Below, one piece after another: positions 512 through 32,700 of a stretch of 64,000 nt of DNA; position 1 is the stretch's first letter; every line of letters begins with the position of its first letter. Under the pieces are notes generated by a model. The model worked only from the letters and a program-made list of their open reading frames with translations, ran no database searches and was not told where the DNA came from. Source of the stretch: a virus; IMG/VR virus record IMGVR_UViG_3300032282_006300, positions 32,001 to 96,000 of that record; one strand, written 5' to 3'. A program made the position numbers and the translations under genes.

Positions 512-1348
512 CTATCCCTCCTCGTAGAAGTCAAACGAGTTCCAAGCCTCGTCCTCGTCCCAATCGTTGTCCCAAGCAGAGCCGTCAGACCCAAGCAAGG
601 GCACATAGTCAGGGTTGGCAATCTCAGCCAACACTTCATAGCGACAGGTACGCAACTTCTGGAAGTCGCAGTCGCGCGGAACGGATACAACATCGCGAGG
701 GTTGATTTTCACCTTGACCACGCGAGGTGCGAAGGTGGAGGCGTAGTCCCAAGTGCCAGCGTGGAGTCCGGTAGAACAGCCCTCAAAGGCGTTTGCGTTC
801 ACGCGATTGCGAGGCATTTCCACGATTGACCCAACAGAGTTCGGGACATTACCGTAGACGGTCTGACCATCTACGATTGCTTCCCCAGAGTGAACCGAGG
901 TGAGGTCGTCCCTCAGACCCTTGTAGGCGATAAAGTCACCGTCCTCAGTAATGGTGAAGTTCCGGTCGTTGAGCCAAGTGTAAAGTTGCTCACGACTGTT
1001 GCCATTACGGTTCTGGAGTACCTTCTCGTAGAAGTTCACGAGAGGCACGAAATCGTAGATACCCTGCTTCTGAAAGCGCGAGATTTGCGCCGACAAAGAG
1101 TTGTCCACGAGTTCACCATCAACATACACACGACCATCGCTGATTGAGATACGGTCGCTGACCTTCTCAAAGGCTTGTCGTGCTTGCTCGGCTAGGTCAA
1201 ACAAGCCAAACACTTGAGGGTCGTCCTTGATAACTCCCTCAATAATCTGCGCGAACGCAGGGTGATTGTTGGTGGCTGTGTAGACCTTGCCACCTTGTAG
1301 CACCGTAATGGCTGAGCCATTACCTGTGCTGATGAGTTCGTAAAGCAT
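512..1348 (-). CDS. rIIB: rIIB-like protein
   Basis: ITEDGDFIAYK, MPRNRV, CSTGLHAG, INPRDVVSVP.D...KLRTCRY motifs; adjacent to rIIA. Confidence 0.85.
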   Translation of the reverse strand: MLYELISTGNGSAITVLQGGKVYTATNNHPAFAQIIEGVIKDDPQVFGLFDLAEQARQAFEKVSDRISISDGRVYVDGELVDNSLSAQISRFQKQGIYDFVPLVNFYEKVLQNRNGNSREQLYTWLNDRNFTITEDGDFIAYKGLRDDLTSVHSGEAIVDGQTVYGNVPNSVGSIVEMPRNRVNANAFEGCSTGLHAGTWDYASTFAPRVVKVKINPRDVVSVPRDCDFQKLRTCRYEVLAEIANPDYVPLLGSDGSAWDNDWDEDEAWNSFDFYEEG

Positions 1349-1378
1349 TTCGTTTCCTTCCTTGTAGTTGTTAGTTCT

Positions 1379-1426
1379 AACTTACCATCTGGGACTGACA
1401 AACCGTGTATTGACGACCGGCGTGTC
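1379..1426 (-). promoter_or_regulatory. Early-type promoter copy 2, also matching the PafBC/RecA-NDp pattern TTGTCAGTC-N8-TAAGTT
   Basis: GACACGCCG-N3-GTCAATAC-N22-TAAGTT. Confidence 0.7.
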
Positions 1427-1437
1427 GTGAGAAGTTT

Positions 1438-1482
1438 CGGCAGGGCAGGTCAGGCAGGGAAGCCCTGACCTGCCCCTGACCG
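1438..1482 (-). terminator. Hairpin between rIIA and rIIB
   Basis: GGGCAGGTCAGG...CCTGACCTGCCC stem. Confidence 0.6.
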
Positions 1483-3519: not shown

Positions 3520-3571
3520 TTTGGAACTTCCCTTCGGTTGTTGTTGGTGACGGTCATCACCTTGTGCCCTA

Positions 3572-3620
3572 ATCATTACACGACAAACGCCGATACTCGT
3601 GGATTGAGTACCGGCGTGTC
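3572..3620 (-). promoter_or_regulatory. Early-type promoter copy 3
   Basis: GACACGCCG-N3-CTCAATCC-N23-AATGAT. Confidence 0.6.
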
Positions 3621-5575: not shown

Positions 5576-6235
5576 TTACTGATCATAGGACTGATCGTAG
5601 GTGGGATCGTCTTTGATCTCCCGATAGATTCTTTGGTAATCCATCTTTTCTTTGTAATGTTTTTCACACTGGGGTTGTGTTTGACCACTTGTTGTTACAT
5701 AGTCTGCGAATCTTTTCTCAGGACATTGTGAGCATTTTGTTTGGCTCAATAGTTCACTGGCGACTTTTACGGCGATCCGCGGGGTCTTCCCCTGATATTT
5801 CCCTTCAAGGATCCCGTGTTCGCGCACATGCTCGCGGGCGCGGTTGATCGTATCCTCGTTGGGGTCTTCATGTTCTTCGGGGTCTTGATCAGTCCGTGAC
5901 CAGTCCGCGTGATTAGTCTTGTCCGGGTCGATGCCCTTGTAGGGCAAGGGGTGCTTTCCAGCAGAGTCATAAGCATGCGTGTCGTCGTGCGCGAAGTAGT
6001 GCGATGGGACCTCCATCTTGTCGCCATCGCTGTCTGTCAAGACCCACCCCATCGCCCCGAAACGAAGAGAAGGCTTCTCGCGGATCAGTGCGTGAGCGTA
6101 TTCAAGGCAATTGCCGTGCTGCCAGTCGCGCCAGCCGTGGAGGTTGTATCCTCGCTCTTGGTAGTCCTTCTCCCATTCCGCAGTTTCTAGGCTGTCTTCA
6201 TTGTTTTCAGCGACTTTGTACCATAGGTTAGCCAT
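5576..6235 (-). CDS. NLWYK-leader protein with papain/transglutaminase-like core and C-terminal Zn finger
   Basis: MANLWYKVA; GNCLEYAHAL...PSHYFAH...AYDSAG; CSQC..CEKH after RIAVKVA linker. Confidence 0.75.
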   Translation of the reverse strand: MANLWYKVAENNEDSLETAEWEKDYQERGYNLHGWRDWQHGNCLEYAHALIREKPSLRFGAMGWVLTDSDGDKMEVPSHYFAHDDTHAYDSAGKHPLPYKGIDPDKTNHADWSRTDQDPEEHEDPNEDTINRAREHVREHGILEGKYQGKTPRIAVKVASELLSQTKCSQCPEKRFADYVTTSGQTQPQCEKHYKEKMDYQRIYREIKDDPTYDQSYDQ

Positions 6236-6277
6236 TATTGTTCTCCGTTATATTGAAAATACACAAGTAAAATTGCT

Positions 6278-7000
6278 TTAAAATTTCCATCCGACGTCTT
6301 GTCCAACGTAAGGGCTTGGACTTAAATGATGATTAATCCGGTTTTTAATACAACTAGAGGCATCTGGATCTAAACAACCATTTTTTTCTGCAAGCGTTCC
6401 ATCAAAAAGACCATTGTAAAGATTTCCACAACGAAGGCATTCATGTTCCCAACCATAATGTGTTTGTACGGGAATATGAAGCGAACTTTTCCAACCCTGT
6501 GATATTGTGCTTTTTAATTCAAAATGCGATCCTGTTTCGGGATCCTTTTCGGATCCGTTGGACCTTAAAGGAGATTGTTGCGCTTCTGCTCCATGTAACC
6601 ATGAACCTAAACCTTGTGTATGTAGATACATGGCTGGTCCAGAATTGTCGTGTTTTAAAATTCCACAATTTATGCCAACTAGGCCACCGTCACCATAAAT
6701 ACCATGTTTTCCGTATATAATCCTATTGTCGTTATGATTATATACGGAACCTTCTTTAAGAATATCTGATACATGTTTTTCGCAATGGTGACAATAATCT
6801 GTTCTGTCATCCATCAATGTGCTTAAATTTTCGCCTTTTAATGTTTCGAAACCTTTATGTATATGGCTCAAATATAAAGAAGGGTTATAAATATGGCGCA
6901 AAGCGGGCGCATTGTGAAACCTACCAATTGCTGGGTTATTATTAAGTTCAGAAACCCAACTTGGTGTATCTGAAGCGACTTTGTACCATAAATTACTCAT
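6278..7000 (-). CDS. NLWYK-leader Cys/His-rich protein
   Basis: Start moved to ATG 7000 (MSNLWYKVA, TAATG overlap); CHHC and CLRC motifs. Confidence 0.75.
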   Translation of the reverse strand: MSNLWYKVASDTPSWVSELNNNPAIGRFHNAPALRHIYNPSLYLSHIHKGFETLKGENLSTLMDDRTDYCHHCEKHVSDILKEGSVYNHNDNRIIYGKHGIYGDGGLVGINCGILKHDNSGPAMYLHTQGLGSWLHGAEAQQSPLRSNGSEKDPETGSHFELKSTISQGWKSSLHIPVQTHYGWEHECLRCGNLYNGLFDGTLAEKNGCLDPDASSCIKNRINHHLSPSPYVGQDVGWKF

Positions 7001-7692
7001 TATTGCTCCTCGCCTTTGAAAAGATATAAACCATTCTTTTGGCGCCATTCTGCTTCTGATCCTAGAAGGGTCTCTAGATCTCCTGCGGTACCATAGGCTT
7101 TTGCTTGTTCGTCAGAAATGTGACCCCCGGGCCAAAGGTCTTTATGGTGAACATAATCTCGGGTTTCCTCTAAAGTATCTTTAAAAGCATGTGGGGTGAA
7201 TATGTCATGTGCAATACAAGAATCAGGATGCCCCGTCGCTTTTACCATTTTTAATTTGTGTTCTTGGCATTCTTTTTGTGAATGTGGTCTGGCGGGCAAT
7301 ATGCTTCCCATAACACAAGTAGGACATTCAACGCCATTTATGTTATTTTTTCTTAATTCTTGAAAAGAAATGGGTTTTTCAATTGATCCACCACGTGAAT
7401 GTTTTAGAAATTTTTCTTTACATTCGTCTCTATTGCAAATAAAAAATTCATGACCAGACCCATTTTTTGCTACGTGGGCAATTTTATCTTGAGGGCTTCT
7501 CAAATGTGAAATATTTTCCCAATATTTATTTGCATATATTGTACGTTGTTTAGTATTTAATTCTCCAGCAACATCAAAAAATTTAAATTTACCTTCAATA
7601 GGAGCAGGTTCATTATCTTCGGGCACCCTTAACCAGTCTGGTTCTCTCATATGGTCACCATAATCAGCAACTTTGTACCATAGGTTACTCAT
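7000..7692 (-). CDS. NLWYK-leader Zn-finger paralog
   Basis: MSNLWYKVA; SFQELR..CPTC..RPHSQKEC..AYGTAGDLE. Confidence 0.8.
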   Translation of the reverse strand: MSNLWYKVADYGDHMREPDWLRVPEDNEPAPIEGKFKFFDVAGELNTKQRTIYANKYWENISHLRSPQDKIAHVAKNGSGHEFFICNRDECKEKFLKHSRGGSIEKPISFQELRKNNINGVECPTCVMGSILPARPHSQKECQEHKLKMVKATGHPDSCIAHDIFTPHAFKDTLEETRDYVHHKDLWPGGHISDEQAKAYGTAGDLETLLGSEAEWRQKNGLYLFKGEEQ

Positions 7693-15713: not shown

Positions 15714-17807
15714 TTAAGCCTGATCTTCGTCTAGGTCAATATCTTCTCGGGTCAAGTGACGGCGCATACCTACCACCTTGGGGTCTCCGAACTTGCCTCT
15801 TGGCAAGGGATCGGAAGGTAACAATAAGCCAGATTCGTTGTAAATGGCGTCATTATTTTCTTCTAAAGGTGCTGGAATTTTGTAATGTTCCCTTGCAATC
15901 CCTCGCATACGGCCAGCCTGCTTGTACAAAACGGCCTGACTTGGCATACCAGCCCTCATCTCGTCTGACTCTTCTGGTCGCTGAGCAGGGGCATCATCTT
16001 GTTCTGCCTGCACTTCATCTTCAAGATTTGATGGAATAGTGTTCATCAAATCATCCTCAGTGGGAGCCAAGTTTGGCTGTATAGCATTGGGGTCCGTACC
16101 CAAAGTAGTAACCCTCGTGTTTTGCATTGCATCCGCAGATGGTCCAGCAGTGGGCTCAAAATCGGCTCGCAAGTCCATTGGAATAGGAAGACCGCGGTCG
16201 CGCAATGCCTGATACATAGCCTTGCGGGTTTCTTGTTCTGCAATAGCCAATTGCACTTGCTCTTCTTGGGTGCGCTCAACTTCTTCATCAAGATCAAAAG
16301 GAATATTGAGGAGGCGAGTTTTGATAGAGATAGGAACTCCAGCGGCCCGCAATTGCTCGTAAAAATCACGTTGGTTTTGTTCGTCGGACAGATTCATTGT
16401 CTTGAAACGAAGTTCGGGAATCAACAGTTTGGGTTGTTCAACGATACGCTCTTCGCCTGTTTCTTCGTCAATTTCAAGAACTTCTTCCATTTTGACGTAA
16501 CGCTTACCGTTGCGAACTTCATAATCAAAATGTTCTTGTGCCTCGGCAACAATCAGTGCACGACTACGGTAATGGTTTGCGATCATCTGCTGGTAAGAAG
16601 TAAGCAACTGGCTTACGAGGTCTCGGTTCAAAGCATCCGCCGCATATGTTTCACCAGCGGATGCACCAGAAAGCATGGTCTGGCTCAAACCAAACGACTG
16701 AAGAATACGTCCTTCTAGCCGGTCAAAATCTGCACTCATGTCGGGCATATTTTCGCGACCGAAAACAGATTCCATTTGGATACCAAAATGGTGAACCAAA
16801 ACGCGGAAGTCCGCGGCCAATGCTTGGTCAAGGGCTTCTTCAAAGTTACCCAAGTCGTCATCTGTTGGAATCCAAGGAACTGTTGTCCCCAAGTCTCCGG
16901 CACTTGCGCCCAATTTTGCAAGAATAAGCGGAGTGTAGAGTCGGTCGGCGATAGCATCTTGCGCGGCGTTAAGCATTTCTTCTTGCATAACCGCTCGCAT
17001 GGCACGCATCAAGATCGGCACGCCACGCTTGTTAAACGTATCTGCTTCAAATTTCATTTGTTTCAGCAACACATTGCTGACAGGCATCAATGCTCCATCA
17101 GAAGCATACTGAAGCAATTCTGGGTAATTCTGGATCAAACGTTCATATTCGTATGAAGGTGAGCGCTTTTGGATAATTTCACGAAGTGATTGAGGCAATT
17201 TGATGTATAGATGTGGATCTCGAGAAAAAGGACTGCGTTCAACTTCTACATCGTCAGGGTTGAGAAGTTCTTCATCTTCCCAGACACCAAGAGCCTCATT
17301 GAAAGAACCCAATGACATGGCTTCACCAACGGTCCAATATTGCTTTCCAATGTCAATCAGAAACTTATCGTAATTTAATCCATCTGGACTAAAAAAAAGA
17401 TCGGTATAAAATTCGGTGAGTTGCTCATCTTTACAAACCAACTCGGAACCGAGCAAAGGATATTTGGAGTAAATGTCCACGCAAGATGCAACAATTGGGT
17501 GAGTCAAGTAAAGCAGACGACAGAAGGCCCGGACCTTTTTAAGTTCTTCGTGCTTTTCCACCTCGTAAGGTAGGTTGTTTTGTTTCCAGTAAAACAGTGG
17601 GTCACGAGGACGACCTGTGGCAAAGGACAATTGTGATCCACCACGACCAGCACCCGATGTAGCAGAAGCAGTACGACGGTTTACTGCGCGGTTCTTTCGC
17701 ATCTCTGCAACTTCAGGATTGTCATCTGTAGTGCTTGTTCGACGAAAACTACCTAACGTTTTCATTACAGATTCATCATATGAAGACGGTTTGCTTTCGT
17801 CAGCCAT
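15714..17807 (-). CDS. Portal protein
   Basis: LYLTHPIVASCVDIYSKYP, LLNPDDVEV, RGVPILMRA, AQDAIADRLYTPLILAKLG; start moved to MADESK 17807. Confidence 0.8.
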   Translation of the reverse strand: MADESKPSSYDESVMKTLGSFRRTSTTDDNPEVAEMRKNRAVNRRTASATSGAGRGGSQLSFATGRPRDPLFYWKQNNLPYEVEKHEELKKVRAFCRLLYLTHPIVASCVDIYSKYPLLGSELVCKDEQLTEFYTDLFFSPDGLNYDKFLIDIGKQYWTVGEAMSLGSFNEALGVWEDEELLNPDDVEVERSPFSRDPHLYIKLPQSLREIIQKRSPSYEYERLIQNYPELLQYASDGALMPVSNVLLKQMKFEADTFNKRGVPILMRAMRAVMQEEMLNAAQDAIADRLYTPLILAKLGASAGDLGTTVPWIPTDDDLGNFEEALDQALAADFRVLVHHFGIQMESVFGRENMPDMSADFDRLEGRILQSFGLSQTMLSGASAGETYAADALNRDLVSQLLTSYQQMIANHYRSRALIVAEAQEHFDYEVRNGKRYVKMEEVLEIDEETGEERIVEQPKLLIPELRFKTMNLSDEQNQRDFYEQLRAAGVPISIKTRLLNIPFDLDEEVERTQEEQVQLAIAEQETRKAMYQALRDRGLPIPMDLRADFEPTAGPSADAMQNTRVTTLGTDPNAIQPNLAPTEDDLMNTIPSNLEDEVQAEQDDAPAQRPEESDEMRAGMPSQAVLYKQAGRMRGIAREHYKIPAPLEENNDAIYNESGLLLPSDPLPRGKFGDPKVVGMRRHLTREDIDLDEDQA

Positions 17808-18112
17808 TAAGACTCCAGACCAGAGGTATACATGTCCCAAGCCTTATGGCCCAGACTACGGATAACATTACCAAAGACACGACGATCTTCCCAATCAGGC
17901 CTACCGTCGTTTTGATACATCATTTTGACGTATTCAGTTAAATTGTCAGAACAAATGCCACACAACTGAATGTAGAAACCCGGCCCTCTTACAATGGCTT
18001 CCGCCGCGATTCCGTAAATGGAGGTTGCTACCGCAGAATCTAGGCGATATGGGTGCAAAACCATAGGCGTAGGCGAATGGAACTTAGATCCTTCGCATAG
18101 TTCGGAGGACAT
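17807..18112 (-). CDS. Hypothetical protein (possible Zn binding)
   Basis: C..H / CGIC; coupled to portal. Confidence 0.65.
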   Translation of the reverse strand: MSSELCEGSKFHSPTPMVLHPYRLDSAVATSIYGIAAEAIVRGPGFYIQLCGICSDNLTEYVKMMYQNDGRPDWEDRRVFGNVIRSLGHKAWDMYTSGLES

Positions 18113-18126
18113 TTCAATTTCCTGAC

Positions 18127-18759
18127 TTAGTTTTGACCCATGCGAGATGCTTTAACGGCCCTTAGCACCTCGGGTGAACGACCGCTAAATTCAATAGCAA
18201 GGTGTCGCAAATAATCTTCCTCACTCACCAAAACACCACTGGCGGTTTTGTAAGATTTTTTAGCAAGTTCTTCATCTTGTGGTTGAATATCGGGATTTTC
18301 TTCTTCCGCTTCTTCCTCGGATACATCTTCGGGATTAATAGGATCTTCTTGGCCCAAAGAGTCTTGTCCGTCCATTGCGGTGCCTTGGGTTGGTTCTGCG
18401 TTTGGCATACCGGGAATTTCTACGGGCACTCCATCAACTGTCTGCGGGAAAGCAGGATAAGAAGGTTGAAGGCGAACCATAAAGTTGATACCACAAAAAC
18501 CACATTCAACTGCCCCATCAGAACGGGCAGTTACCTGACCACTACCGCACATGGGGCAGTGAAAAATACGAAATTGGTCACCGCTATCGTGAGCCTGCAC
18601 CCTAATAGATGACATTGTTTTCCTTCCAGAACTCTTTGATGCCGAAACCATTCCGCCACGGGGACGCTCTAAACAAGCCGGACAAAGCATCTGATCGCCC
18701 GAACGACTGCGGGGTACGTACGGATCCATCTTGACTCCGCAATCATCACACAGCCTCAT
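18127..18759 (-). CDS. Zn-ribbon virion-region protein
   Basis: CDDC..CPAC, HCPMCGSGQV..ECGFC; GAGGAGG RBS. Confidence 0.75.
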   Translation of the reverse strand: MRLCDDCGVKMDPYVPRSRSGDQMLCPACLERPRGGMVSASKSSGRKTMSSIRVQAHDSGDQFRIFHCPMCGSGQVTARSDGAVECGFCGINFMVRLQPSYPAFPQTVDGVPVEIPGMPNAEPTQGTAMDGQDSLGQEDPINPEDVSEEEAEEENPDIQPQDEELAKKSYKTASGVLVSEEDYLRHLAIEFSGRSPEVLRAVKASRMGQN

Positions 18760-18772
18760 ATAGAGCCTCCTC

Positions 18773-18807
18773 TACCTTTTTGGAGCCGTTTAAGGTGATG
18801 CGACAGG
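18773..18807 (-). promoter_or_regulatory. Putative late promoter CCTGT-N26-GGTA
   Basis: Recurring motif. Confidence 0.6.
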
Positions 18808-19866
18808 GGTTTTGGGCTCGTTCAGGGCTTTCATGTACCAAGACATGTTTTCTTGCAATCTGGGGTCTTCAGGAAACAAGTCTAATGCTTTTTGACCATA
18901 GGATAGGGCCAGATCATGCGCACCGCAATTATGGGCGCATAAAGCCGCAATATCATAGATGTAGAAATTCCAGGCTTTATCTTCTGTGATGTATGCGGGG
19001 TGTTTAAAATCCATAGAAACTGCTCTATTGGCCATGCCAAGACCACATTGCCAACGACCTTCGTTGTAATACAATTCTGCCAATTCTACAAAAGGTTCTC
19101 TGCGGTCAGAAGTTTCTGCACAAGCCTTTAGTAACCAAGTTTCAGCATTGTTGGGTTCGCATTTGGCGAGCATAATCATTGATTCAGAACGTTCGTATGA
19201 CCAACCACCAAGGGTTAGATAACGTTTAAGTTCTTCGGCACATTCTTCAAAACGTTGAACATAAAATAATTCTCTGCCGTAATAAAAAGACATACGGGAA
19301 TCATCCGGCAAATCTTTTACTGCTTGTTCAAGCATAGGTAGGTAATTGCGGGGTTTGGTGCGATCTGGCATATGTTCGCTAATTACCTTACTGCTGGCCC
19401 TAATGCACGGTGTAACTTCAAGCATTTCGTGAATAGGCCAAACCCAACGTGAGCCGTGGCGAGCATGGATGTTTACACGTTCCCAACTTTGCAATGGCGT
19501 TCCATCGGGCAATTTGCTATTGATAAATAAATAACCAAATTGTGTGGCTTCTGGATTTTCTTCAATAGTTTTTTCTAATTCTTCTCGCCATCCTTCATGC
19601 AAAATTTCATCCATATCGACACTGAAACAAAAATCAACATCGTCGGGGATAAGGTTGAGCGCATCATTGCGTGCCTGATCAAATTTAAAAGTTTTATATT
19701 TTTTCTTATGAACCGTTACGCCAGAGGCTTTGGCAATTTTGACGGTATCGTCTTCTGAGCCTGTATCAAGAATTAAACGAACGTCTGCATCTTTTGCTGA
19801 TTCAGCCCAACGGGCAACATGCTTGGCTTCGTTTTTGGCTATTGAATATACAGCGATCTTTGGCAT
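18790..19866 (-). CDS. GT2 glycosyltransferase with TPR repeats
   Basis: IAKNE, LDTGSEDDT, F..ARN.AL, DMDE, W..PIHE; TPR-like C-terminus. Confidence 0.9.
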   Translation of the reverse strand: MPKIAVYSIAKNEAKHVARWAESAKDADVRLILDTGSEDDTVKIAKASGVTVHKKKYKTFKFDQARNDALNLIPDDVDFCFSVDMDEILHEGWREELEKTIEENPEATQFGYLFINSKLPDGTPLQSWERVNIHARHGSRWVWPIHEMLEVTPCIRASSKVISEHMPDRTKPRNYLPMLEQAVKDLPDDSRMSFYYGRELFYVQRFEECAEELKRYLTLGGWSYERSESMIMLAKCEPNNAETWLLKACAETSDRREPFVELAELYYNEGRWQCGLGMANRAVSMDFKHPAYITEDKAWNFYIYDIAALCAHNCGAHDLALSYGQKALDLFPEDPRLQENMSWYMKALNEPKTPVASP

Positions 19867-20388: not shown

Positions 20389-21717
20389 TTATGGTTGTTG
20401 TTGTTGTTGTTGTTGGTTGTTTTGTTTTTGAGGAGGATTAAAACTTTTTGGAATTTTATTCAAAAGTGGTCCAGCACCAGGAAGCAAAACATTTACTCCA
20501 GTTTCGACCACTTTAGGAATTGCTCTTTTTACGGCTTGTTCAATTGGTCCATCAGGAGGAGAAGATGGCGGTTGAAAATTTAAAGAGTTGGCAAAACCTC
20601 CACCCAAGAAAGACATAGGGTATTCTGCCATCGCGGAAATAGCGATAACCCGTGCTTCTTTATCGCTTAAATGCGGATTGTCTTGAAGTACCTTTGCGGT
20701 AAAAAGCAACAAAGAAATTTTAGGCGACGAAGTGTCTGGTGAATTAGCACCACTAGAAGCAGGATTAAACATACCGGGCTGTCCCCCGCTCAGCCCGGGA
20801 TTTCTCATTTGGCGGTTAATTAATTCTGGATCACTTGATTCTAGCCCCATTGCGGGTGAGGTTCCGTTTCCGTAATTAGAAGAAGGACCTGCACTGCTTG
20901 GCAACATGCCATTATTGTATTGAATACTGGCTGGGGTGCTATTGGCACTAGACCTTTTATCAATAGTGCCCTGCTCTTCTAAGTCTCCAGAACCGCACAA
21001 AGGACATTTGCGAGGACCTTGTGGATTTTTTAAATCGTTAAAAGCGTCGTCTTCATCTTTATGATTACAATTTTTACATTTAAGTTCTACAACCATATCT
21101 GCTTTTTTTAAGATACCAACAGAGAATTTTGATGACAGGTATTCCCAACGACCGTTAGGTACATACACGCCATCTTCATCTTGTTCTGTGAGATGCACTT
21201 TTATCCTCGGGGCTTGTTCTGAAGGCTTTTGTTTTTTTGAAGGTGAAGGAGCCGGTTCAGATGTTTGTTGTGGTTGTTGTGGTGGTTGTGGTTTTTGTGG
21301 ACGTTGCACGTTTGTTTCTTTTTTTTTAGGTTTTCCCATCAATTCGTCAAATTTTTCAAAACCTTTTAGCAGTTTTTGATCTAAACCTTGAAAACCTTGC
21401 CAATGGTTTTCATTAAGTTCACCTTTGTGGTTTAAACGATTTTGTACCGTATTGATAATATTTTTTATATCTGCTGTGGTACCAGAAGCAGTTACACCAT
21501 CATTGTTTTCATTTAGTGGGCGAGTGCTTTCATCGTGGCAAGGACCACAAAAAACCATTTTGCCATTATCAATGGAGACACCACAACATTCTCCTGCATT
21601 CAAACCACAATTATCGCATTTTGGCGTAGGGTGTCCCGGCTCAACAAAATCTTGTTCGGCAGGTGAATGTCCGCACCGAGATTTGTTGGCTGTTTGAGAA
21701 CCATACTTATCGGCCAT
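20389..21717 (-). CDS. Modular Zn-finger/low-complexity protein with poly-Q tail
   Basis: CDNC..CGPC, CKNC..CPLC, Pro/Gln tracts. Confidence 0.7.
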   Translation of the reverse strand: MADKYGSQTANKSRCGHSPAEQDFVEPGHPTPKCDNCGLNAGECCGVSIDNGKMVFCGPCHDESTRPLNENNDGVTASGTTADIKNIINTVQNRLNHKGELNENHWQGFQGLDQKLLKGFEKFDELMGKPKKKETNVQRPQKPQPPQQPQQTSEPAPSPSKKQKPSEQAPRIKVHLTEQDEDGVYVPNGRWEYLSSKFSVGILKKADMVVELKCKNCNHKDEDDAFNDLKNPQGPRKCPLCGSGDLEEQGTIDKRSSANSTPASIQYNNGMLPSSAGPSSNYGNGTSPAMGLESSDPELINRQMRNPGLSGGQPGMFNPASSGANSPDTSSPKISLLLFTAKVLQDNPHLSDKEARVIAISAMAEYPMSFLGGGFANSLNFQPPSSPPDGPIEQAVKRAIPKVVETGVNVLLPGAGPLLNKIPKSFNPPQKQNNQQQQQQQP

Positions 21718-21719
21718 TA

Positions 21720-23462
21720 TTAACCCATATCGTTTTCAATTTGTGGATCGAAAGAACTAAGACGATGGGTACGTTGCCATCCCCATACAGGGTTGTAATA
21801 ACCATTTGGAGTATTTTTATGCACATGGTTCATAATATGTGTATGCGCGTGAACACCAAAAAAATCAGTAAGTTCTCGATGATCAGACGGTGATACGTTG
21901 TATTTCTTGTACATAGCAAGTTGGGGTTCGGTTGGTTCGTCGTTATAAGTTTCACTGATCGCGTGATCTTCAGAACAATCGTCCGCACCGGCCGTTTTAT
22001 TAAAATTTAGGCGACTGCTAGATTGGCTAGAAACTTTGAGCGACTTATAATCGCTGTGCAAGCGCTTGCTTGCGGCAACAGCCTCGTCACGGGTTTGGTG
22101 TGAGGAAAGAACATTGCCTGATTTCTTGTCAATGATTACCCACATGCCATTGCGCTTACGCACATTGCCAGCCGCGGTACGGCGTGAGGCAGTCTTGCGG
22201 GAGGCAGTGGTGCCCATTGGGTAAGAACGATCCGGGTGCGTGTGATCAGCATGGCCATCGTTGTGCATCTGATCGTGCAAATTTGCAATAGTCTCTTCGT
22301 GAGCACTGCCACGGTCTTCATCATCCTTAATAGACAAATCAGGCCCAGGAAGAAATTCAGTCCAAAGATTATGATCGTTCTCAATGTGCTGAACCATAGG
22401 GTGGCTTTCCACGTCGTCAGGATCAACCCCCCAGCCAAGGATGTTTGCGAGATACGGGCCTTCCTTGGGGGCATCATCCGAACCTGCAACCAGGAGAGGG
22501 TTGTCTTCTTCATCGCCTGGGTGCCAGTGGTCAATACTGCCATCGGCGTGCTCATTGTCATGTTTTTCTTTAAGCAATTGCCCGACATCAGTGCGTCCAC
22601 CATTACGCGCTTTGTATGCTGCGTCGTCATGAACTTGGCTCAAAATATCACCGGCACCATTGCCGTGATCTTCAACAAGGTGATCCATAGCCTCGTTAAT
22701 GTGGTGATCTTCAGCAGCGGTCTTGCGGGAGGACTGTGCACGCTTGTGATCACTCATACCACGTCCATCGCAACCTGGACAAGTGTTATCACCATGATTA
22801 ATCTCGCCATCTGTGGTACCTGTGCCATTACAAGAAATACAAGTCATATGGCCAGTCTTGCGAGCGGCAGTGGTGCTGTTGTCTTCTGATTGGCATTGAG
22901 GACAAACAAGATGTAGTTTTCCATCAAACGTGGTGTAATCTGACCAATTTTCTTTTTTGCCAGAGAACCCGCACTTATTACACTTAGCAGAAGACCCGTC
23001 ATCACCAGCGGTACGGCGTGAGGAAGTGGTGTTGCCTCTCTGCCTTTTGTCATATTCAGCAAAGGGGTCGGTGTCTTTGTATTCAGGCAAATTATTTTTA
23101 TTTGCGTGTTCTCCGAAAAACTCACAAGCCAAACATACATTTGGGTCTTCAGCATCGCATCCACAAGGGCAACTGCAAATACCGTTGTTTGCCAACTTGA
23201 CGTTACCGGCCTCAACCAGCATTTCCCAACGGTTACGCAAAGAAGCAGTAACTTCATCAAGAGGAACACCTGTGCTATCTGACAACTCCTGAATGCTCGC
23301 GGTGGCCAGCATTAGGCGACCTTCGAACTCATCGTTGGTCTGCGCCAGAGCAAGGTATTGCATGACACCAGTTGATGCCACACGGAGGTTAGCCTGAGCA
23401 ACTAGACGCGCTTCTGAATCGTAATCGCGTGAAGCCTCATCCCAAACGGAGTAGCCATCCAT
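21720..23462 (-). CDS. Modular virion-region protein with repeated SR[KR]TA linkers
   Basis: Cys and His cassettes separated by SSRRTAG, AARKTGH, SSRKTAA, ASRKTASRRTAA, FNKTAG. Confidence 0.75.
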   Translation of the reverse strand: MDGYSVWDEASRDYDSEARLVAQANLRVASTGVMQYLALAQTNDEFEGRLMLATASIQELSDSTGVPLDEVTASLRNRWEMLVEAGNVKLANNGICSCPCGCDAEDPNVCLACEFFGEHANKNNLPEYKDTDPFAEYDKRQRGNTTSSRRTAGDDGSSAKCNKCGFSGKKENWSDYTTFDGKLHLVCPQCQSEDNSTTAARKTGHMTCISCNGTGTTDGEINHGDNTCPGCDGRGMSDHKRAQSSRKTAAEDHHINEAMDHLVEDHGNGAGDILSQVHDDAAYKARNGGRTDVGQLLKEKHDNEHADGSIDHWHPGDEEDNPLLVAGSDDAPKEGPYLANILGWGVDPDDVESHPMVQHIENDHNLWTEFLPGPDLSIKDDEDRGSAHEETIANLHDQMHNDGHADHTHPDRSYPMGTTASRKTASRRTAAGNVRKRNGMWVIIDKKSGNVLSSHQTRDEAVAASKRLHSDYKSLKVSSQSSSRLNFNKTAGADDCSEDHAISETYNDEPTEPQLAMYKKYNVSPSDHRELTDFFGVHAHTHIMNHVHKNTPNGYYNPVWGWQRTHRLSSFDPQIENDMG

Positions 23463-23480
23463 AGTTATATTTCCTCTTCC

Positions 23481-26141
23481 TTAGTTTTCTTTGGTTACAA
23501 GAGAGATATTATCTTCAATTGCTTGACGGAAGTTGGCCAGACGGCGAGCACTCGTCAATTGTTGTGTTGCTGGCATTGAGACGTTGATCTCGGCATTAAT
23601 CACACCTTGACCAAAGGGCTCAACACCATTGTAGGGTGCAGGACCACCGGGACGAGCGGGATCAGTTCCTCCAGCGTTAGGACCATCGCGGCCCGGACCG
23701 TTAATGGGGGTTTCACCAACGGGGGAAGGTGTAGCGTCTGGAGCCATAGTGTCAAGGTCAGTTGACGTGGCACTCTCAACGCGAAGGTAAGCACCCTTCA
23801 TAATTCCACCTTGATCAGAAATGACCTTCAAGGAGAAATCTTTATGAAGTGCAATGCGCTGGCTAAACTCTGGATACTTGTTGGCTTGCTTGCGATGCTT
23901 GGCAACCCAAGCCTCTTGAGAACCAATGTTGTCAGAGATACCTGCGTACAGGCCAGCCTCAAACTCGGCAGAACCGGTGCGAACCAATGGCTTGCTTGCG
24001 TCCCATTTGCTTGCAAACTTGTAAGCCTTACGGAATTCAGGGTCCTGATTTGCATCTTCTGGAGTGAAAAGGCTAGAGGTGCGTTGCGCTTGTGCTTCGT
24101 CCAATTGCCTTTCTAGATCCTTGTTGTTTTCTGGTGCGTGTTTGGGAGATGGTGAATTTCCTCGCCAAATCTGGTCACTTTCATACCTTTGACTGTAAGG
24201 CAAAGTTTCATCATCAATATATTTGCCCGGACGATTAAGGTGCAATTTACTTACGTCGGTTGGAAGATCCGCGGCTGGACCTTTACGACGAAATGGGTTG
24301 CGACCAGCGGTACCACTCAAAAATGCCTGACCATTATCGCCACCGGCTGAGTAAGGCATGTCCTTGGGGTTACGCTCATCGCGTGCTTCGCCAATACCCT
24401 TTTGGTAACCTGCAACATAACCGGAGGAGAAAGCAAGACCACTTGATGCATCAGAGTAGGTAGGTGCATCACCATTGGCGCCATCAGCCATACCGGCCGC
24501 AAAACCAGCGGTGTACGAGCCACCCTGCTGAGGTTGTGGGGTAGTAGCAGGGGAATTTGCTACATCAGGTTGTGCAACTGCGTGAGGTGCATCGGAGTTA
24601 CCGTACATGTCAGCAGTTTTGCGAGAAGCCGTTGGCGGTGCTATGCCGTCGAGAAACGGTCCCCTGCAATCATCGCAACTCCACCTAGTTTGATTAGGAT
24701 TCCCATAAGAGATATAGACAGACGGTTTTGCCCCAGCGGCTCCACAATTGTCGCAAGTTGCTTCAGCAGCAGTCTTGCGGGAGGCGTTCTTGGGCGCGTT
24801 GACTTCAGCGGGAACCATACCCATGCCACCGCAATTACCGCAGGAGTTCTTGCCATCTTTAGTCTTTCCAGTGGCATCACAAGAACGGCAAGAAAAATCA
24901 GCGGGAGCAGCAATACGGCGAGAGCCGGTAAAACCAAATTCGTGTTGTCTACCCGGCAAATATCCGCGAAGGTGTTCGTTTATGTGGGCTTTGGCGTCCG
25001 CAACGCTTTCATGGTCGTGCTGATTTTGATCGTCGTGGGTATTTTCATTTCCCATAATTGTGAAAATACGATTGGGATCATCTCCACTTTGATAAATGTG
25101 ACCGAATGCAAAATTGCCATCTCTGTCTTTAGTCTCTGCGCTGTGTAAAAGTGGATCATCTCCACCATTTGGATCAATTCCACCCTCGTCATACCACTGA
25201 ATTTTAGCAGCAGTCTTGGTTGCGGCAACAGCCTTATCAATTGCTGCTGGTGCCGCCTGAGTAAAATCCTGATCATCAGCCTCTGGGTCCACAACCGGAC
25301 CGCCAAGCATCCAAGGGTAAGCAACTTCACCCGGAAGTGGGGTGGGCTTGGGCATGTTGTTGGGGTCAATGGTTTGAGCAATCTGATCCAAGGTGCTTGC
25401 GGCTTCACGCTGACGAAACTCATCCAAGTTGTAGGAGTGAGAAATGGCAACTGAAGTTACATTAGCAAAGTTAGCGGTTCCGCCACCGGGAACTGGGGGC
25501 CATTCTCCTTGGCCTTGTCCTCCACCAAGTTGCTCAATTTCAGCAAGCAATGGGTTGTTGTAAGTTCCCTCTTGCGCGACAGCCTGATCATTAATCGGGT
25601 GAACTGGGTCTTCAAAAGTGGGGAAGGTAGCCGCAGGGTATTCAGTAGCCTTGGGCATGTTATTGGGATCAATGAGTTGGTCAACCTGATCCAAGCCGGA
25701 TGCGGCTTCGCGGTTCAAGAATGCAACGTATTGCAAGAACGACTGCTCGGCGTCAGGTGCATAAACACCGTAAGTGCTGGCGGTACGACGAGCAATACCA
25801 CGGGCCTGCTCAACAAACTCTGGAACGTCATTTTTGACTTCGTCAGAGATGCGGTTGAACCACAATGATGCTTCAGCCATCACTGCTTGGTGATAGTTAT
25901 TGTCCTGAGTGTCGTCATCCATGCTCAACCAGTCGGTGGAGGCAGTGTGAAACTCGTGCACTCGCACGGGCGACAATGTCTGCTCTACAATCGCGCTGGT
26001 GAAGTCTAGACTTCGGTCTTCAGCGATGTTGCTGGCCTGACGAGCGTCAAGTGCTTCAAGTTCTGAAACCAAAGCGATCTGCTCAGCAAGAGATGATGCT
26101 TTTTGCAAGGATGCCATGATTTCGGCACGAGAGTTGTTCAC
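23481..26141 (-). CDS. Modular virion-region protein with REAAS duplication and SRKTA linkers
   Basis: REAAS.LDQ...IDPNNMPK twice; ATKTAA, GSRRIAA, ASRKTAA, ASRKTAD. Confidence 0.75.
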   Translation of the reverse strand: MNNSRAEIMASLQKASSLAEQIALVSELEALDARQASNIAEDRSLDFTSAIVEQTLSPVRVHEFHTASTDWLSMDDDTQDNNYHQAVMAEASLWFNRISDEVKNDVPEFVEQARGIARRTASTYGVYAPDAEQSFLQYVAFLNREAASGLDQVDQLIDPNNMPKATEYPAATFPTFEDPVHPINDQAVAQEGTYNNPLLAEIEQLGGGQGQGEWPPVPGGGTANFANVTSVAISHSYNLDEFRQREAASTLDQIAQTIDPNNMPKPTPLPGEVAYPWMLGGPVVDPEADDQDFTQAAPAAIDKAVAATKTAAKIQWYDEGGIDPNGGDDPLLHSAETKDRDGNFAFGHIYQSGDDPNRIFTIMGNENTHDDQNQHDHESVADAKAHINEHLRGYLPGRQHEFGFTGSRRIAAPADFSCRSCDATGKTKDGKNSCGNCGGMGMVPAEVNAPKNASRKTAAEATCDNCGAAGAKPSVYISYGNPNQTRWSCDDCRGPFLDGIAPPTASRKTADMYGNSDAPHAVAQPDVANSPATTPQPQQGGSYTAGFAAGMADGANGDAPTYSDASSGLAFSSGYVAGYQKGIGEARDERNPKDMPYSAGGDNGQAFLSGTAGRNPFRRKGPAADLPTDVSKLHLNRPGKYIDDETLPYSQRYESDQIWRGNSPSPKHAPENNKDLERQLDEAQAQRTSSLFTPEDANQDPEFRKAYKFASKWDASKPLVRTGSAEFEAGLYAGISDNIGSQEAWVAKHRKQANKYPEFSQRIALHKDFSLKVISDQGGIMKGAYLRVESATSTDLDTMAPDATPSPVGETPINGPGRDGPNAGGTDPARPGGPAPYNGVEPFGQGVINAEINVSMPATQQLTSARRLANFRQAIEDNISLVTKEN

Positions 26142-27643
26142 TGGTTCTCCTCTAGATCAAGCACTTGACGTGCTCTTTGGGCGATGGCTGAAGCCGTACG
26201 CCGATTGTTTTTGATTGCTGCTTTGTTAACTGATGGTGCGTCTGAAAATTTCAAACCACCCGCACCAGGAACTTTTTCTACGAAACCGCAAGTAGAACAT
26301 TTATAATCGTTTGCGCCTTTTTGCAATGTCATCATTGTACCATCACGAGGGCATTTTAACTCTTCGGCAGAAGGTTTGTTGGCGAGTGGATCATGTTGAC
26401 GGCCAAAAGGAATTACATTGCTGTTTCCACCCGGAATGCCTGTGCTAGGTAATTCAATTTGACTCATGTTGTAAGGATTACGTACAACTGTTCGATTTCG
26501 TTTTACGGGAGAAGAAGTTCCTGAATCTGTGTCCACGTAGGCTTCACCGCTTTGAGTTTCAAAAGAACGTGTACGGCGAATTTTTTCATTACCTTGGGTA
26601 ATTGGGTGGAGAATGTAATCTTGTGGTGTTAAATTTTGAACTTGAGTGGGGATCAAAGTCGCATTCTTGTTTGAGGAAGTGGCTTTGTTATTCGGAGTTT
26701 TACGAGCGCCGCGAAAATTGCGCATCATTGTATGATAGACATCGTCCGCAGCGTATCTTTTTTGCGAAGTCTCGTGCTCTTGGAACGGGCTTACGCGATG
26801 GTACTGTGTGCCTTTTGGACCTTCAACGGTAAAAACACCAGCCTTGTAACCGTAGGCTTTATTTCCAAAATCATTATCTGGAACGTGTTCGTGATAACTG
26901 ATATTGTGTTCAACGCCATCGGGACCAATAAATTGCATGGATTCCCCGTGTTGAAGCCCATGAATCTGTGTCCACGTAGGCAGTTTTGCCCACCAGGGAT
27001 TTTCATTTTCAGCAGTTTTGCGAGAAGCCTCGGTGTGCTCACCGCTTTGAACGTGGAGGTCTGGATCGTACCAATCGTCGTGACCATAGTGTTCGAAATA
27101 ATCTTTTCTGTTTGCTGAATACCACGGGGCGATAACTTCTTTTCCGCACGCAGAGCAACGTTCTCCCATTGGACCGGTAGAATCCCAAGATGCAATGGAA
27201 CCACATGATCCTTCGCATTCTTTAGTCTCTGGGCCGTGGCAATCGGTACAATAGATTTCTCCATCATGGGCGTAGCCTTTTAAGAATTTGTCAGACGCAG
27301 TTTTGCGAGAGCCGGTAAAACCCGGATCTTTTTCGCGGTCGTAGGGGCGGTCGGGAGTGCCTACTGCCGGGTCGTTTTTCGTGCAATTGTCGCACTTAGG
27401 AAAAGAACTATCTTCAGGCACGAGCATATTAGTCCCACAGTTAATACAACTACCGCGGACAGCAATTTTAGAATTAGCGAAAAAAATGTCATAAGCCGAC
27501 TTCTTTGCCATTTGCCGTCTAACCTTCTTCTGGTCGGTGGATGGATTACGCCTTACTTGGCTGTCAGAACCCCTCATAGGTTCTTGCTTCGGAGCGTCCT
27601 CATTACGAGAAACACCCTTTGGCTTTGCAGCCTCATACTGCAT
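26138..27643 (-). CDS. Modular Zn-finger protein with SRKTA linkers
   Basis: Start moved to MQYEAAK behind GGAGG; GSRKTAS, ASRKTAE, NRRTAS. Confidence 0.75.
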   Translation of the reverse strand: MQYEAAKPKGVSRNEDAPKQEPMRGSDSQVRRNPSTDQKKVRRQMAKKSAYDIFFANSKIAVRGSCINCGTNMLVPEDSSFPKCDNCTKNDPAVGTPDRPYDREKDPGFTGSRKTASDKFLKGYAHDGEIYCTDCHGPETKECEGSCGSIASWDSTGPMGERCSACGKEVIAPWYSANRKDYFEHYGHDDWYDPDLHVQSGEHTEASRKTAENENPWWAKLPTWTQIHGLQHGESMQFIGPDGVEHNISYHEHVPDNDFGNKAYGYKAGVFTVEGPKGTQYHRVSPFQEHETSQKRYAADDVYHTMMRNFRGARKTPNNKATSSNKNATLIPTQVQNLTPQDYILHPITQGNEKIRRTRSFETQSGEAYVDTDSGTSSPVKRNRTVVRNPYNMSQIELPSTGIPGGNSNVIPFGRQHDPLANKPSAEELKCPRDGTMMTLQKGANDYKCSTCGFVEKVPGAGGLKFSDAPSVNKAAIKNNRRTASAIAQRARQVLDLEENQ

Positions 27644-27667
27644 ATTAGGCCTCCACAATCAATCTCC

Positions 27668-29491: not shown

Positions 29492-29714
29492 TACCTCTCA
29501 GCAATTCAATTTCATCATCGGGAGAAAATGATTGTTTTTCGGTAACATCATTTGTTACAAAAGTAACGATAATCATGGATACGTGCCCTAAACTAGAATT
29601 GGCATTGTTAATATTGGTAACATAACTTCTACCAAAATCTGTTTTAATAACTTGACCTTTTTTAATATCGCCAGCAAGAATTATCAAAGGGGTTTGGCGT
29701 TCTTCAGACATCAC
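29481..29714 (-). CDS. Small SH3-like hypothetical protein
   Basis: AGDIKKGQVI pattern; packed ORF. Confidence 0.55.
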   Translation of the reverse strand: MMSEERQTPLIILAGDIKKGQVIKTDFGRSYVTNINNANSSLGHVSMIIVTFVTNDVTEKQSFSPDDEIELLRGIDE

Positions 29715-32700
29715 TGCGCCCCCTCTTTTTTATCAATACCAAAACGGGCATTTACAAGAGGTTGCCATAAACCTTTTTGATCTAAATATTTTTCGGCGGC
29801 ATTGCGGTAGTCAAAAACCCCGCGACCAGAAGGTTTGAATGCGCCCTTGCGAGATTCGTGGATAAATTCCCACAGTTGTCGGGCACGGCGGTTGCGGGAA
29901 GGTTCTGGCAACTTGAGAATGTTCTCAATTTCTACAGCCAATCCTTCAAAATAATACCATTCGCTTTGATTAAACTGGTGACCTTCTGGTGCCTCAATCG
30001 GTCGCACTGCCCATTCATCGTCAGTTAAATTATAAGCCGCGTAAGGTTTTAACACACTAATATCGTAAGAATGGGGATTGACGTAAAAAGTAGCAGACCA
30101 AGGGCCAACCTTAATTTTTCCACCAAATGGTTCACCGTTCCATTCCCATTCTGGAATGCCAATAAAAGGCACATTAAAATATGCTTCTTCAATGTTGCAG
30201 TGTTCGCGTAATTCTGCATTCATATGTGCAGAAATTTTTTCAGGAGACATTGTTGCAAATTGTGGATTGCTTTCAATCAAACCACCGTATTCAATTCCAA
30301 TCAAGGTATCAAGATCATCATTAAGATGGTATCCTTGAGATGCGCCGATTTCAGGATTTTTTACTGCGCTAGGATCTGCCCACCATTGGCTTACAGAAGA
30401 ACCGGCAATATAAACTTTACTCCAGTTTTTCCATTCTTTGTATTGGCTGTCCCATAATTCAGCAATACGGTTTATAATGGATTCACGAATTTCTGGGCGA
30501 ATCTTGTCATCTTCAAAAAGACGTGGATCTAGGCTACCAATAGTTGGCGCAAACAAGCGCTGGTTAGGTCGCCAAGAATCAAGGACTGCATTGCGTTCAT
30601 TTGCATTCTTAGAAGCATGTGGGTGAAGTGTTTTTACAAGGTGGTCATGCCACGCCCTGCCTTCACTTGTTTTACGATTTGAATGAATAGGTTTGGTGTC
30701 GGCTAAACCTAACATGTGTGCTTCGTGCGCTTTTGTAAGCATTGTAGTAGCGATACCGTGATATTGATATCCTGGATCTACTTCAATCCAATCAATCTCA
30801 CCTGGAGATAATTTAGAAAGATCGTCTCCATGTCGATCTGTCCATGATAATACTCCAATTTGTTCGTTATTATGATGGACAGTTATTCTATGAGAACCTC
30901 CCTTTTCCGGCGATTCTTTAAAGCGATATTCAATATTTTGTGGGTGAGGGGCATTACTCATATTTTGTGTATAAGTTTTATTTGCCTCATCTAAATTTTT
31001 TTGAAAATCTAAAAATGCATCTTCAGATTTACTTTTATAATACTCGTTTTCATGTTTATTTATTGCATTTTGAAGACGGGCATCTTCCTGTTTTTTAATA
31101 GTCAGGAAAGGATCTTCATCACTAGCAAAATGCTGGAGTAGGCTTAGGCTTGGAGGTAATGAAGACACCCACGCTTCACCGTCATCACTCAGGATATCTG
31201 AGTGCTGGGGTTTAGTAATTGCTCTACCAGAATAATGGGCATCGCGAGCCTTTTCCATCATTTTTGTAGCAATACCATGACGTTGATATTCATCATCCAC
31301 GTCAATGTTGCTGATTTCACCAGAAAAATAGCCAGAACTATATTTATCGTGGGTATCAGTCGCCCAACGAAGGTTGCCAACTTGTTTGCCATCATGGTTC
31401 GCAGTTACTTCATGCATGCTGCCAACCGTGCCAACAGCGCGATAAAACTTGTATTCTACGTTCATTGGGTGTGGTGCTTTTCGCATATTTTGTATATAAA
31501 TTTTGTATGCATTTGAAAATTCTTCATTAGAACCACGCTTTGCCGCATTAAGTTTAGCCTTTTCCTGCTTTTTAATCGTCAGAAAAGGATCTTCATCACT
31601 AGCAAAATGCTGGAGTAAGGAAGCCAAGGTGGGATTTTTTTCAACCATGCGGTCATACCATGCTTGACCTTGAGTGGTTTTGTGATCGGAATGTTCAATA
31701 CGTGTACTGGCATCACCAAATTCGTAAAATTCCCGAGCCTTTTTAATAAGATTAGTAGCAATGCCATGACGTTGGTATTCCGGGGTTACTTGGATGTGGC
31801 CAATTTCCCCAGGAAAAAGACTATGACGTGTTTTTTTTTCATCATTAGCCCAGCGAACATGACCAACTTCTTCGCCATTATGGTAAGCAGTTACTTGATG
31901 CATTTGGTTTCCACCATGTTCAGAACGTTTATTAAATTCGTATTCTACGTTCATTGGGTGTGGGGCTTTTCGCATATTTTGTATATAAATTTTGTATGCA
32001 TTTGAAAATTCTTCATCAGAGCCACGCCTTGCCGAATTAAGTTTGGCATCCTCTTGCTTCTTAATTTTCAAAAAAGAATCTTCATAACTGGCAAAATATT
32101 GTAGCAAGGAAGCCATCCTTGGGTCTTTTTCAACCATGCGCTGATGCCATGCACGGCCTTGATCGGTTTTGTCATCGGAATGTTCAGCGCGAGTACTGGC
32201 TTCACCGGATTCGTAAAATTCCCGAGCCTTCTTGACAAGATTAGTCGCAATGCCATGACGTTCGTAAACAGGAATTACGCCGACGTATCCAATTTCTCCA
32301 GGAAAAAGTTTACGATGTGTTTGTATTTGATCATTGGCCCAACGAATATGACCAACTTGTTCGCCATTATGGTGAGCAGTTACTGCATGCAATTGTTTTC
32401 CACCATGTTCAGAATATGAATGAAATTTGTATTCTACATTTTGTGGGTCGGGGGCATTTTGCATTTGGGTACTAAAACGACTTAAGGTAGCAAAACGTTT
32501 TCTTTTTTCACGGCGCACAATTTCGGCTCGGCCACTATTTTCGTGCTCGTCTTCCGCATCACCAATTTTATCGTTTGCAATTTTCCTGGCTTCATCTAAA
32601 GAATCGTTGGCCTTTTTCATAGCAATATCGTATTTTTTTGCGTGGGGATCAAAAACATTTTCTGCTGCAGCATAAGCAGCGTCCCGCTTGTCCCTGTGGG

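Follow-up and report, generated by a model that had tools for sequence, protein, structure and literature searches.

Recurrent SR[KR]TA linkers bound exchangeable cassettes in three adjacent genes of an uncultured lake phage and are candidate prohead-protease sites

In phage T4, the capsid-targeting peptide of the internal proteins is removed in the prohead, and the motif of the prohead protease gp21 ends in Glu. The T4 internal proteins are diverse and defence-related, and the capsid-targeting sequence is described as the sole part that they have in common (PMC3012670). In the published accounts of the giant phages phiKZ and SPN3US, a single prohead protease processes many head-internal ejection proteins, which it cuts at several sites that follow a short consensus (PMC5694885, PMC10052503, PMC7411985). 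Polyvalent proteins, in turn, were described as multi-module proteins encoded beside virion genes; their travel with the DNA and their release by embedded peptidases, assemblin-like ones included, were predictions (Iyer et al. 2017, PMC5512222). Here we analyse a 64,000-nucleotide stretch of an uncultured lake phage (hereafter the window), which covers bases 32001-96000 of the 123,830-bp virus record IMGVR_UViG_3300032282_006300, a record with direct terminal repeats. In this window, three adjacent open reading frames (ORFs) of 506, 886 and 580 amino acids (aa) are divided into short cassettes by a recurrent SR[KR]TA linker. On balance, we favour the reading that these linkers are prohead-protease sites that would free packaged mini-proteins, and that they double as in-frame recombination joints. 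Protease-processed head cargo is a kind already known; this locus would differ in its very small zinc-binding modules, in the use of one universal joint in three adjacent genes, and in population-level exchange at that joint.

The exact motif SR[KR]TA is present in eight copies genome-wide, all of them in the three ORFs (four in the 580-aa, two in the 886-aa and two in the 506-aa ORF) and none in the rest of the proteome, counted over 150 greedily called ORFs of the whole genome (39,215 aa, of which the three ORFs make up 1,972 aa). When the residues of the three ORFs are shuffled, 0.006 copies arise on average and 1 at most, and none of 2000 shuffles reaches 8. The looser [RK][RK]TA has 12 copies, 10 in the three ORFs, one in the portal protein and one in a helicase-like ORF. 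All copies listed in the first-pass annotation were found, on the minus strand: SSRRTAG, AARKTGH, SSRKTAA, ASRKTASRRTAA and NFNKTAG in the 580-aa ORF, ARRTAS, ATKTAA, GSRRIAA, ASRKTAA and ASRKTAD in the 886-aa ORF, and GSRKTAS, ASRKTAE and NRRTAS in the 506-aa ORF. The related NRRTAS of the portal, SRKIA and FNKTS of an 874-aa ORF and a leader with NLWYK that it had also named are equally present.

Concerning gene classes, the replication block contains 14 copies of the loose form [RK][TVI]A where chance predicts 12.7 (z 0.4). Copies are in excess in the three ORFs (16 versus 2.8 expected, z 8.1), in the array of genes with the NLWYK leader (8 versus 1.1, z 6.7) and in the capsid-protease block (10 versus 4.6, z 2.5), and the tail genes contain 23 copies where 13.3 are expected. 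The earlier suggestion that the motif should be commoner in late than in replication proteins thus holds for the head-related blocks.

A site logo built from 42 distinct sites of the window proteins and their ten closest relatives reads T-T-A-S-R-[RK]-T-A from position -7 to 0, followed by A, G, S or D and by no conservation beyond. Arg occupies position -3 in 40 of the 42 sites, and Arg or Lys position -2 in all 42. The conserved part therefore lies wholly N-terminal of position 0, which is the usual shape of a protease site. The codons vary among copies (Ser TCA/TCC/TCT, Lys AAG/AAA, Thr ACC/ACT/ACG, Ala GCT/GCC/GCG), which indicates that it is the peptide that is kept and that selection acts on the peptide.

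Everything of this phage located by coordinate below lies on the minus strand, in window positions unless said otherwise. The 506-aa ORF (26138..27658) begins with TTG, the end at 27643 given by the first-pass annotation being the next ATG. Its variable cassette region runs from GSRKTA (SRKTA, residues 117-121, 27296..27310) past a second SRKTA (residues 212-216, 27011..27025) to the degenerate ARKTP / NKATS (residues 318-328; ARKTP, residues 318-322, 26693..26707), and its conserved C-terminal part ends in NRRTAS (NRRTA, 26192..26206). In the 886-aa ORF (23481..26141), the N-domain (residues 1-~300, with an ARRTA inside it at 25779..25793) and the C-domain (511-886) are conserved. Between them lie three cassettes, from ATKTA (residues 307-311, 25209..25223) to SRKTA|DMYG (residues 506-510, 24612..24626), parted by SRRIA (residues 407-411, 24909..24923) and SRKTA (residues 454-458, 24768..24782). 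The 580-aa ORF (21720..23462) has a conserved helical N-domain (residues 1-~88) followed by zinc-ribbon, CxxCxGxG, His-rich and beta-beta-beta-alpha cassettes. Its linkers are SRRTA (residues 148-152, 23007..23021), the degenerate ARKTG (residues 200-204, 22851..22865), to which ASRRTA corresponds in the relative P0003, SRKTA (residues 245-249, 22716..22730), a tandem SRKTA-SRRTA (residues 421-430, 22173..22202) and the variant NFNKTA (residues 486-491, 21990..22007). The tandem forms an 'empty cassette' with nothing between its two linkers. A 442-aa ORF (20389..21717) follows.

The linkers part short Cys-rich or His-rich stretches. No Pfam family scores above its cut-off in the 580-, 886- and 506-aa ORFs (sub-threshold, Anti-TRAP at E 0.0022 and DnaJ CXXCXGXG at E 0.0027), and no PHROGs family is assigned to them. 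An AlphaFold2 model of the 580-aa protein has a mean predicted local distance difference test (pLDDT) score of 42.9, mostly below 50, with moderate confidence only for the helical N-domain (1-88) and the beta-beta-beta-alpha module (434-479). Calling the cassettes self-contained modules is thus based on their sequence pattern and on the exchange described below, and not on confidently predicted folds.

Conservation at the protein level has the same layout. The 580-aa protein has six relatives at E <= 0.001, all of which share the first ~90 residues; beyond these, Cys-rich modules vary in set and order, and SR[KR]TA or a near variant closes each of them. For the 886-aa protein, 272 homologues were found, with conserved terminal domains and a variable middle. 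The A510-D511 junction at the start of its C-domain is invariant in 19 of 19 aligned homologues, and among 58 matches anchored on A-D in the 150 listed representatives position -2 is Lys in 31 and Arg in 7. In the same 150, 61 contain A.G..[RHK][RK].A[SGE], the pattern of the ARRTA site in the N-domain, and 76 contain a repeat whose commonest residues are R-[RK]-E-[AG] before ASGL, in 116 copies. The corresponding repeat of the 886-aa ORF, REAAS[GT]LDQ...DP..xP.PTPLP (25698-25712 and 25395-25409), also starts basic-basic-x-Ala. The closest of 50 related loci in viral contigs, L003 (GC 0.65), has the same gene order and its own zinc ribbons, joined by S-S-K-T-A, V-K-T-A and G-K-T-A. Scans of viral contigs with the 580-aa or the 886-aa protein singly gave no relative, and blastn and tblastn against GenBank phages gave none for the region or the 886-aa protein, the portal alone being matched. 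Outside the window, an 891-aa Cys-rich ORF (genome 22394-25069) contains a module ASLSEQVWDD... that is common to P0005 and P0006 of the 580-aa family, together with K-I-A, K-N-A and K-Q-A junctions and an Ala/Gly-rich stretch; judged from these features, it may be a fourth cassette protein.

Direct evidence for exchange comes from L053, an 8-kb metagenome contig that is a near-identical relative: its flanks are 98.6% identical to the window over 3.8 kb, while entire cassettes differ in the three polyprotein genes. Along the 886-aa gene, window and contig agree up to the codons of A-A-[TKTA / RRTA], the window having ATKTA where L053 has RRTA, and the alignment resumes at the first base of SRKTA|DMYG. 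Between these points lie three cassettes in the window and one unrelated cassette in L053. Where the 580-aa ORF has its tandem linker, L053 has a single SRRTA. Four of the seven internal alignment ends fall on linker cores. Moreover, a 28-nucleotide stretch around the 886-aa linker at 24768..24782 matches, at 96% identity, a linker that L053 has in its 580-family gene.

We also aligned contigs from four further public runs, each from another study, to the stretch, and took the break coordinates from their tabulated joints, loose ends and pieces. Out of 35 break coordinates in total, which are not independent of each other, 22 lie within 7 nucleotides of one of 14 linker cores, zones that make up 6.7% of the stretch. 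Areas without contig cover, such as 22314-22511 in all four runs, were left out of the evidence, as were the habitat labels of runs with small shares. Breaks at 22190, at 24623/24627 and at 27297-27311 each recur in three runs. The first SRKTA of the 506-aa ORF is a recurrent break point in X2, X3 and X4, and the second one is a break point in X2 and X4. In a contig of X4, the cassette between two linkers of the 506-aa gene is replaced by 297 other letters, and in a second X4 contig the same 506-aa-gene cassette stands directly ahead of the C-domain of the 886-aa gene. When 16 proteins are split at their linkers, the 68 resulting segments include three clusters that are shared across gene families. 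With 4 of 7 ends against L053 and 22 of 35 in the four runs, where about 6.7% is expected, the first-pass annotation was right to look for indel boundaries at linkers. Since the cassettes differ although the flanking genes are ~99% identical, they are candidates for host-interaction or anti-defence functions.

The same signature recurs at boundaries of the head maturation protease. This enzyme makes up the first ~250 residues of a 1948-aa ORF that lies beyond the window (genome 12837-18683, equivalent to L054:4837-10683), identified by phrog_18299 at residues 60-213 (E 1.7e-20) and 36% identical to the 'prohead protease' gp77 of Rhodococcus phage E3. We compared it and the major capsid protein among this phage and four complete high-GC relatives (n=5). 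The protease starts with a leader M-x-x-K-x-A-[ST] in which K4 and A6 are invariant in all five. At its other end, conservation stops after P-A-D-P-T-A-x-F-x-G-V-D, and within ~30 residues behind the domain stand ASKTA (this phage and L055), KKGA (L057) or QKTA (L058), that is in four of five, while L056 has SRKTA only farther downstream. The major capsid protein is 88-90% identical and starts with 10-13 variable residues, followed in 5/5 by L[RK]G[RK][VI]A[KR]KSDDY. The portal carries an N-terminal extension E-M-R-x-N-R-R-V-x-[RK]-[KR]-[TV]-A (its NRRTA at 17667..17681), counted by eye in about 15 of 18 homologues and adjoining a Gly-rich stretch. Five consecutive ORFs (5576..8986) begin with a 9-residue leader M[AS]NLWYK[VT][AS] and diverge right behind it.

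Two cases show that a linker in one phage can be a gene boundary in another. In the window and in L053, the 442-aa ORF stands as a gene of its own; in relatives its counterpart is joined to the 580-family protein, with an SSRKIG linker ahead of it in P0005 and P0006, and P0003 has a fusion as well. A zinc-ribbon module with YGE[TQ].AP.DVDTLR opens a 243-aa ORF of its own in this phage, preceded by a leader of 9 residues with RKFA at its end. The protease polyproteins of four relatives and of E3 contain the module internally, after SKLA, KTRA, RKLA, GKTA or RKQA; in E3, RKQA|YGET stands just behind the protease domain. Related sites are SYKTA (18241..18255; SLKTS at this position in L003) in a 210-aa zinc-ribbon ORF (18127-18759), and SRKIA (14850..14864) in the 874-aa ORF (13026-15650). 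The latter has several zinc ribbons and, near residue 560, a CxC...CxH stretch resembling a SWIM finger; its middle (431-603) is conserved in relatives (phrog_2940), and it is not the protease. In two of the four relatives (L059, L060; G002, G004), the protease polyprotein carries at its C-terminus a scaffold-like 292-aa protein for which this phage has an individual gene.

A second class of linker, L[LF]Q[FHY]FA, is found five times between the GNAT domains of a 1441-aa ORF (29711-34036) and in two exact copies in the 1948-aa polyprotein, where looser variants, its last residues included, end in HFA, FFS or KFA. It contains no basic residue and is not explained by the single code for leader and linker that the first-pass annotation proposed. 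It may resemble the leader cleavage site of the Prp / ribosomal-protein-L27 type; a search for the Prp cysteine protease (PF04327), a possible enzyme for this class, gave no match at E <= 1 in the phage genome.

Taken together, the 506-, 886-, 580- and 442-aa ORFs most likely encode head-cargo polyproteins; the one pointer to a place inside the capsid is their location between the terminase and portal genes. Each chain would combine a conserved anchoring domain with a variable string of modules of ~45-180 residues (zinc ribbons, CxxCxGxG fingers, a His-rich unit and a small beta-beta-beta-alpha module). The prohead protease would recognise [KR]-x-A throughout the clade, with T-T-A-S-R-[KR]-T-A as the form of this site in the lake lineage. 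The chains would enter the prohead and there be cut into separate mini-proteins by the N-terminal protease of the 1948-aa ORF. As every joint encodes the same peptide, the joints also serve as in-frame recombination points, at which wild populations swap, delete and move cassettes among the three genes. We infer cleavage and packaging, as well as any action of the released modules, from this arrangement. The proposal of the first-pass annotation that the linkers are maturation-protease sites gains indirect support from the [KR]-x-A found at the N-terminal leader and C-terminal boundary of the protease, in the capsid leader and in the portal; its placing of the cut after Ala is an assumption. 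Under that assumption, the predicted pieces would be of 152, 52, 45, 176, 5, 61 and 89 residues for the 580-aa protein and of 121, 190, 100, 47, 52 and 376 residues for the 886-aa protein. Assemblins, the herpesvirus proteases, cut between Ala and Ser. A cut after Ala would resemble these sites and would fit K-x-A followed by S, G or A.

Several points weigh against this reading. The HK97-type protease of phage phi12 is described as having Lys or Arg, not Ala, at position P1 (PMC8569155), and a cut after Lys or Arg in the linkers would resemble that enzyme. Pfam recognises no peptidase family in the protease domain, and a sequence search of solved structures with that domain finds nothing at E <= 10. 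Modelled with AlphaFold2, the protease reaches a pLDDT of 43.5, so that fold searches with the model give only a weak hint. Foldseek puts herpesvirus proteases on top, but at E 0.011 and with a template modelling score of 0.24. VIA-align gives Z 5.5 for the varicella-zoster virus protease and Z 4.4 for T4 gp21, both in the noise range, ranks folate-binding domains above the viral proteases and reaches no Z of 8. Mycobacteriophage Phabba, a cultured phage of cluster C2, has no clean motif behind its protease domain, and [KR]-x-A is low in information, so conserved copies could be structural. The model of the 580-aa protein is too poor to support independent folding of the cassettes. Three of the seven break points against L053 lie off linkers, as do 13 of the 35 in the four runs, 5 of which fall on the degenerate ARKTP and NKATS, recognised post hoc (at ARKTP, breaks 26704 and 26713 in X3, X4 and X6). 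Finally, the 50 related loci, with GC of 0.59-0.72, contain only 0-2 copies of [STAGN]R[KR]TA each, which makes the many-cassette build a trait of the low-GC lineage.

The linker could instead be a flexible joint that is never cut, uniform for the sake of recombination or as a docking peptide, in proteins that act as intact beads-on-a-string. This we hold to be rather unlikely, even though the clustering of breaks on linkers, the near-identical 28-nucleotide stretch that ties linkers of two different genes, the contigs with linker-to-linker joints from the 506-aa to the 886-aa gene and the UvsX-like recombinase encoded by the phage all agree with it, and the case for cleavage has so far been built from sequence. 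An uncut joint accounts poorly for a peptide that is kept while synonymous codons differ, for K-T-A in the 65%-GC relative L003, whose DNA is dissimilar, and for a signature that separate proteins carry 5-9 residues behind their start and that also stands at the protease boundaries, places where a recombination joint would be of no use. Cutting by a different enzyme, such as a host protease that prefers dibasic R-[KR] and acts after ejection in the infected cell, seems improbable to us. The almost constant basic pair at -3 and -2 would suit such an enzyme, the non-basic second linker class in the neighbouring polyproteins means that more than one enzyme may act, and the fold assignment of the phage protease is weak. 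Against this stand the variants with a single Lys at equivalent places (NFNKTA, SYKTA, S-x-KTA of L003, NLWYKVA) and the presence of the motif at the boundaries of the phage protease itself; a second protease gene did not turn up, Prp being the only one sought by family.

More improbable still is that S-R-K-T-A is a repeated nucleic-acid- or portal-binding motif of internal head proteins, with no processing at all. A basic, repeated motif that is conserved in the portal extension beside a Gly-rich stretch would be in keeping with binding; yet the conserved basic residues number just two, the uncharged T-T-A-S and T-A are kept as strongly, and a position at module and gene boundaries and in N-terminal leaders is not what one expects of a binding patch. 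Chance or low-complexity composition, to which a motif this short might be ascribed, is extremely improbable given the outcome of the shuffles and the conservation of the positions in relatives. We also ruled out a twin-arginine translocation (Tat) signal for S-R-R-x, as no hydrophobic stretch follows the motif, and dropped kinase, sortase and pupylation motifs, for which we know of no supporting feature.

A close parallel is T4, where IPI, IPII and IPIII are fast-evolving small proteins with one prohead-loading peptide; the ORFs with the NLWYK leader and the cassette linkers would correspond to them here. In T4, each internal protein has one gene and one N-terminal tag, whereas here many modules share a frame with the tag-like peptide between them. 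The motifs also differ, basic-x-Ala in this phage and Glu-ending for gp21, and the fold comparison with gp21 stays at the Z of 4.4 given above. The inner-body proteins of the giant phages are large and paralogous, in contrast to the strings of unrelated zinc modules of 45-100 residues seen here; motif and lineage differ too, and the abstracts of the giant-phage descriptions do not mention site-bounded cassette exchange. As in polyvalent proteins, the module strings sit between terminase and portal genes and consist of mutually unrelated, exchangeable cassettes. However, none of the polyvalent hallmark domains (MPTase, ART, kinases, GNAT, NTase, ParB) is above the Pfam threshold in the three ORFs, which have no embedded peptidase, and the 1441-aa GNAT-repeat ORF fits that class better than they do. 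The main text of PMC5512222 uses neither 'linker' nor 'zinc ribbon', its relevant passages mention no repeated inter-module linker, and neither our literature searches nor these passages brought up a description of cassette polyproteins with linker-bounded exchange. Finally, the protease resembles assemblin and HK97-type systems in that it heads a longer chain, which in relatives also has scaffold-like parts, and in that its flanks bear the short motif of the presumed substrates; it differs from them in its weak fold match, in matching no Pfam peptidase family and, as regards the phi12 enzyme, in the Lys or Arg described there at P1.

Concerning the genomic setting, GC is 0.40-0.53 across the window, and nearly every gene is on the minus strand. 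In the order of transcription, replication genes (DNA polymerase, primase, helicases and the UvsX-like recombinase) are followed by the large terminase (34238-36235), the 1441-aa ORF and then the 506-, 886-, 580- and 442-aa ORFs. After these come a family-2 glycosyltransferase with TPR repeats (18790-19866; phrog_13126, E 3e-100), the 210-aa zinc-ribbon ORF, the portal (15714-17840; phrog_2833, E 4e-158), the 874-aa ORF, the five ORFs with the shared leader, and rIIA and rIIB homologues (512-3576; phrog_612, E 3e-87, and phrog_609, E 6e-60). The portal has its closest cultured relatives in Rhodococcus phage E3 and cluster C mycobacteriophages (41-44% identity). The rIIA/rIIB-like genes thereby noted lie in an actinophage-like genome. 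The glycosyltransferase, which lies within the head-gene block, is ~99% conserved in L053. In three high-GC relatives (L034:14221-17514, L044:19163-22249 and L049:16987-19881), the portal gene has insertions of ~240-390 residues behind its N-terminal part, with a Cys-x-x-G-E-T-like or Cys-N-T-P-like start and an intein-like look.

A broader proposal, possible but on the doubtful side, is that [KR]-x-A governs every head-maturation cut in the clade of large actinophages, and that the lake lineage multiplied it into universal in-frame joints for trading a shared stock of zinc-ribbon mini-proteins of 45-100 residues among the three genes by linker-to-linker recombination; these would be packed, cut free, injected along with the DNA and would diversify like anti-defence genes. 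If the linkers are cut, the capsid would receive from a single gene a large number of small proteins independent of each other. The signal for cutting would then be a standard connector that allows reshuffling without breaking the frame and a fast turnover of injected proteins, and it would offer a natural template for putting chosen proteins into phage heads. For a large and mostly uncultured group of actinobacterial phages, of which Rhodococcus phage E3 is a cultured relative, it would provide a readable processing code.

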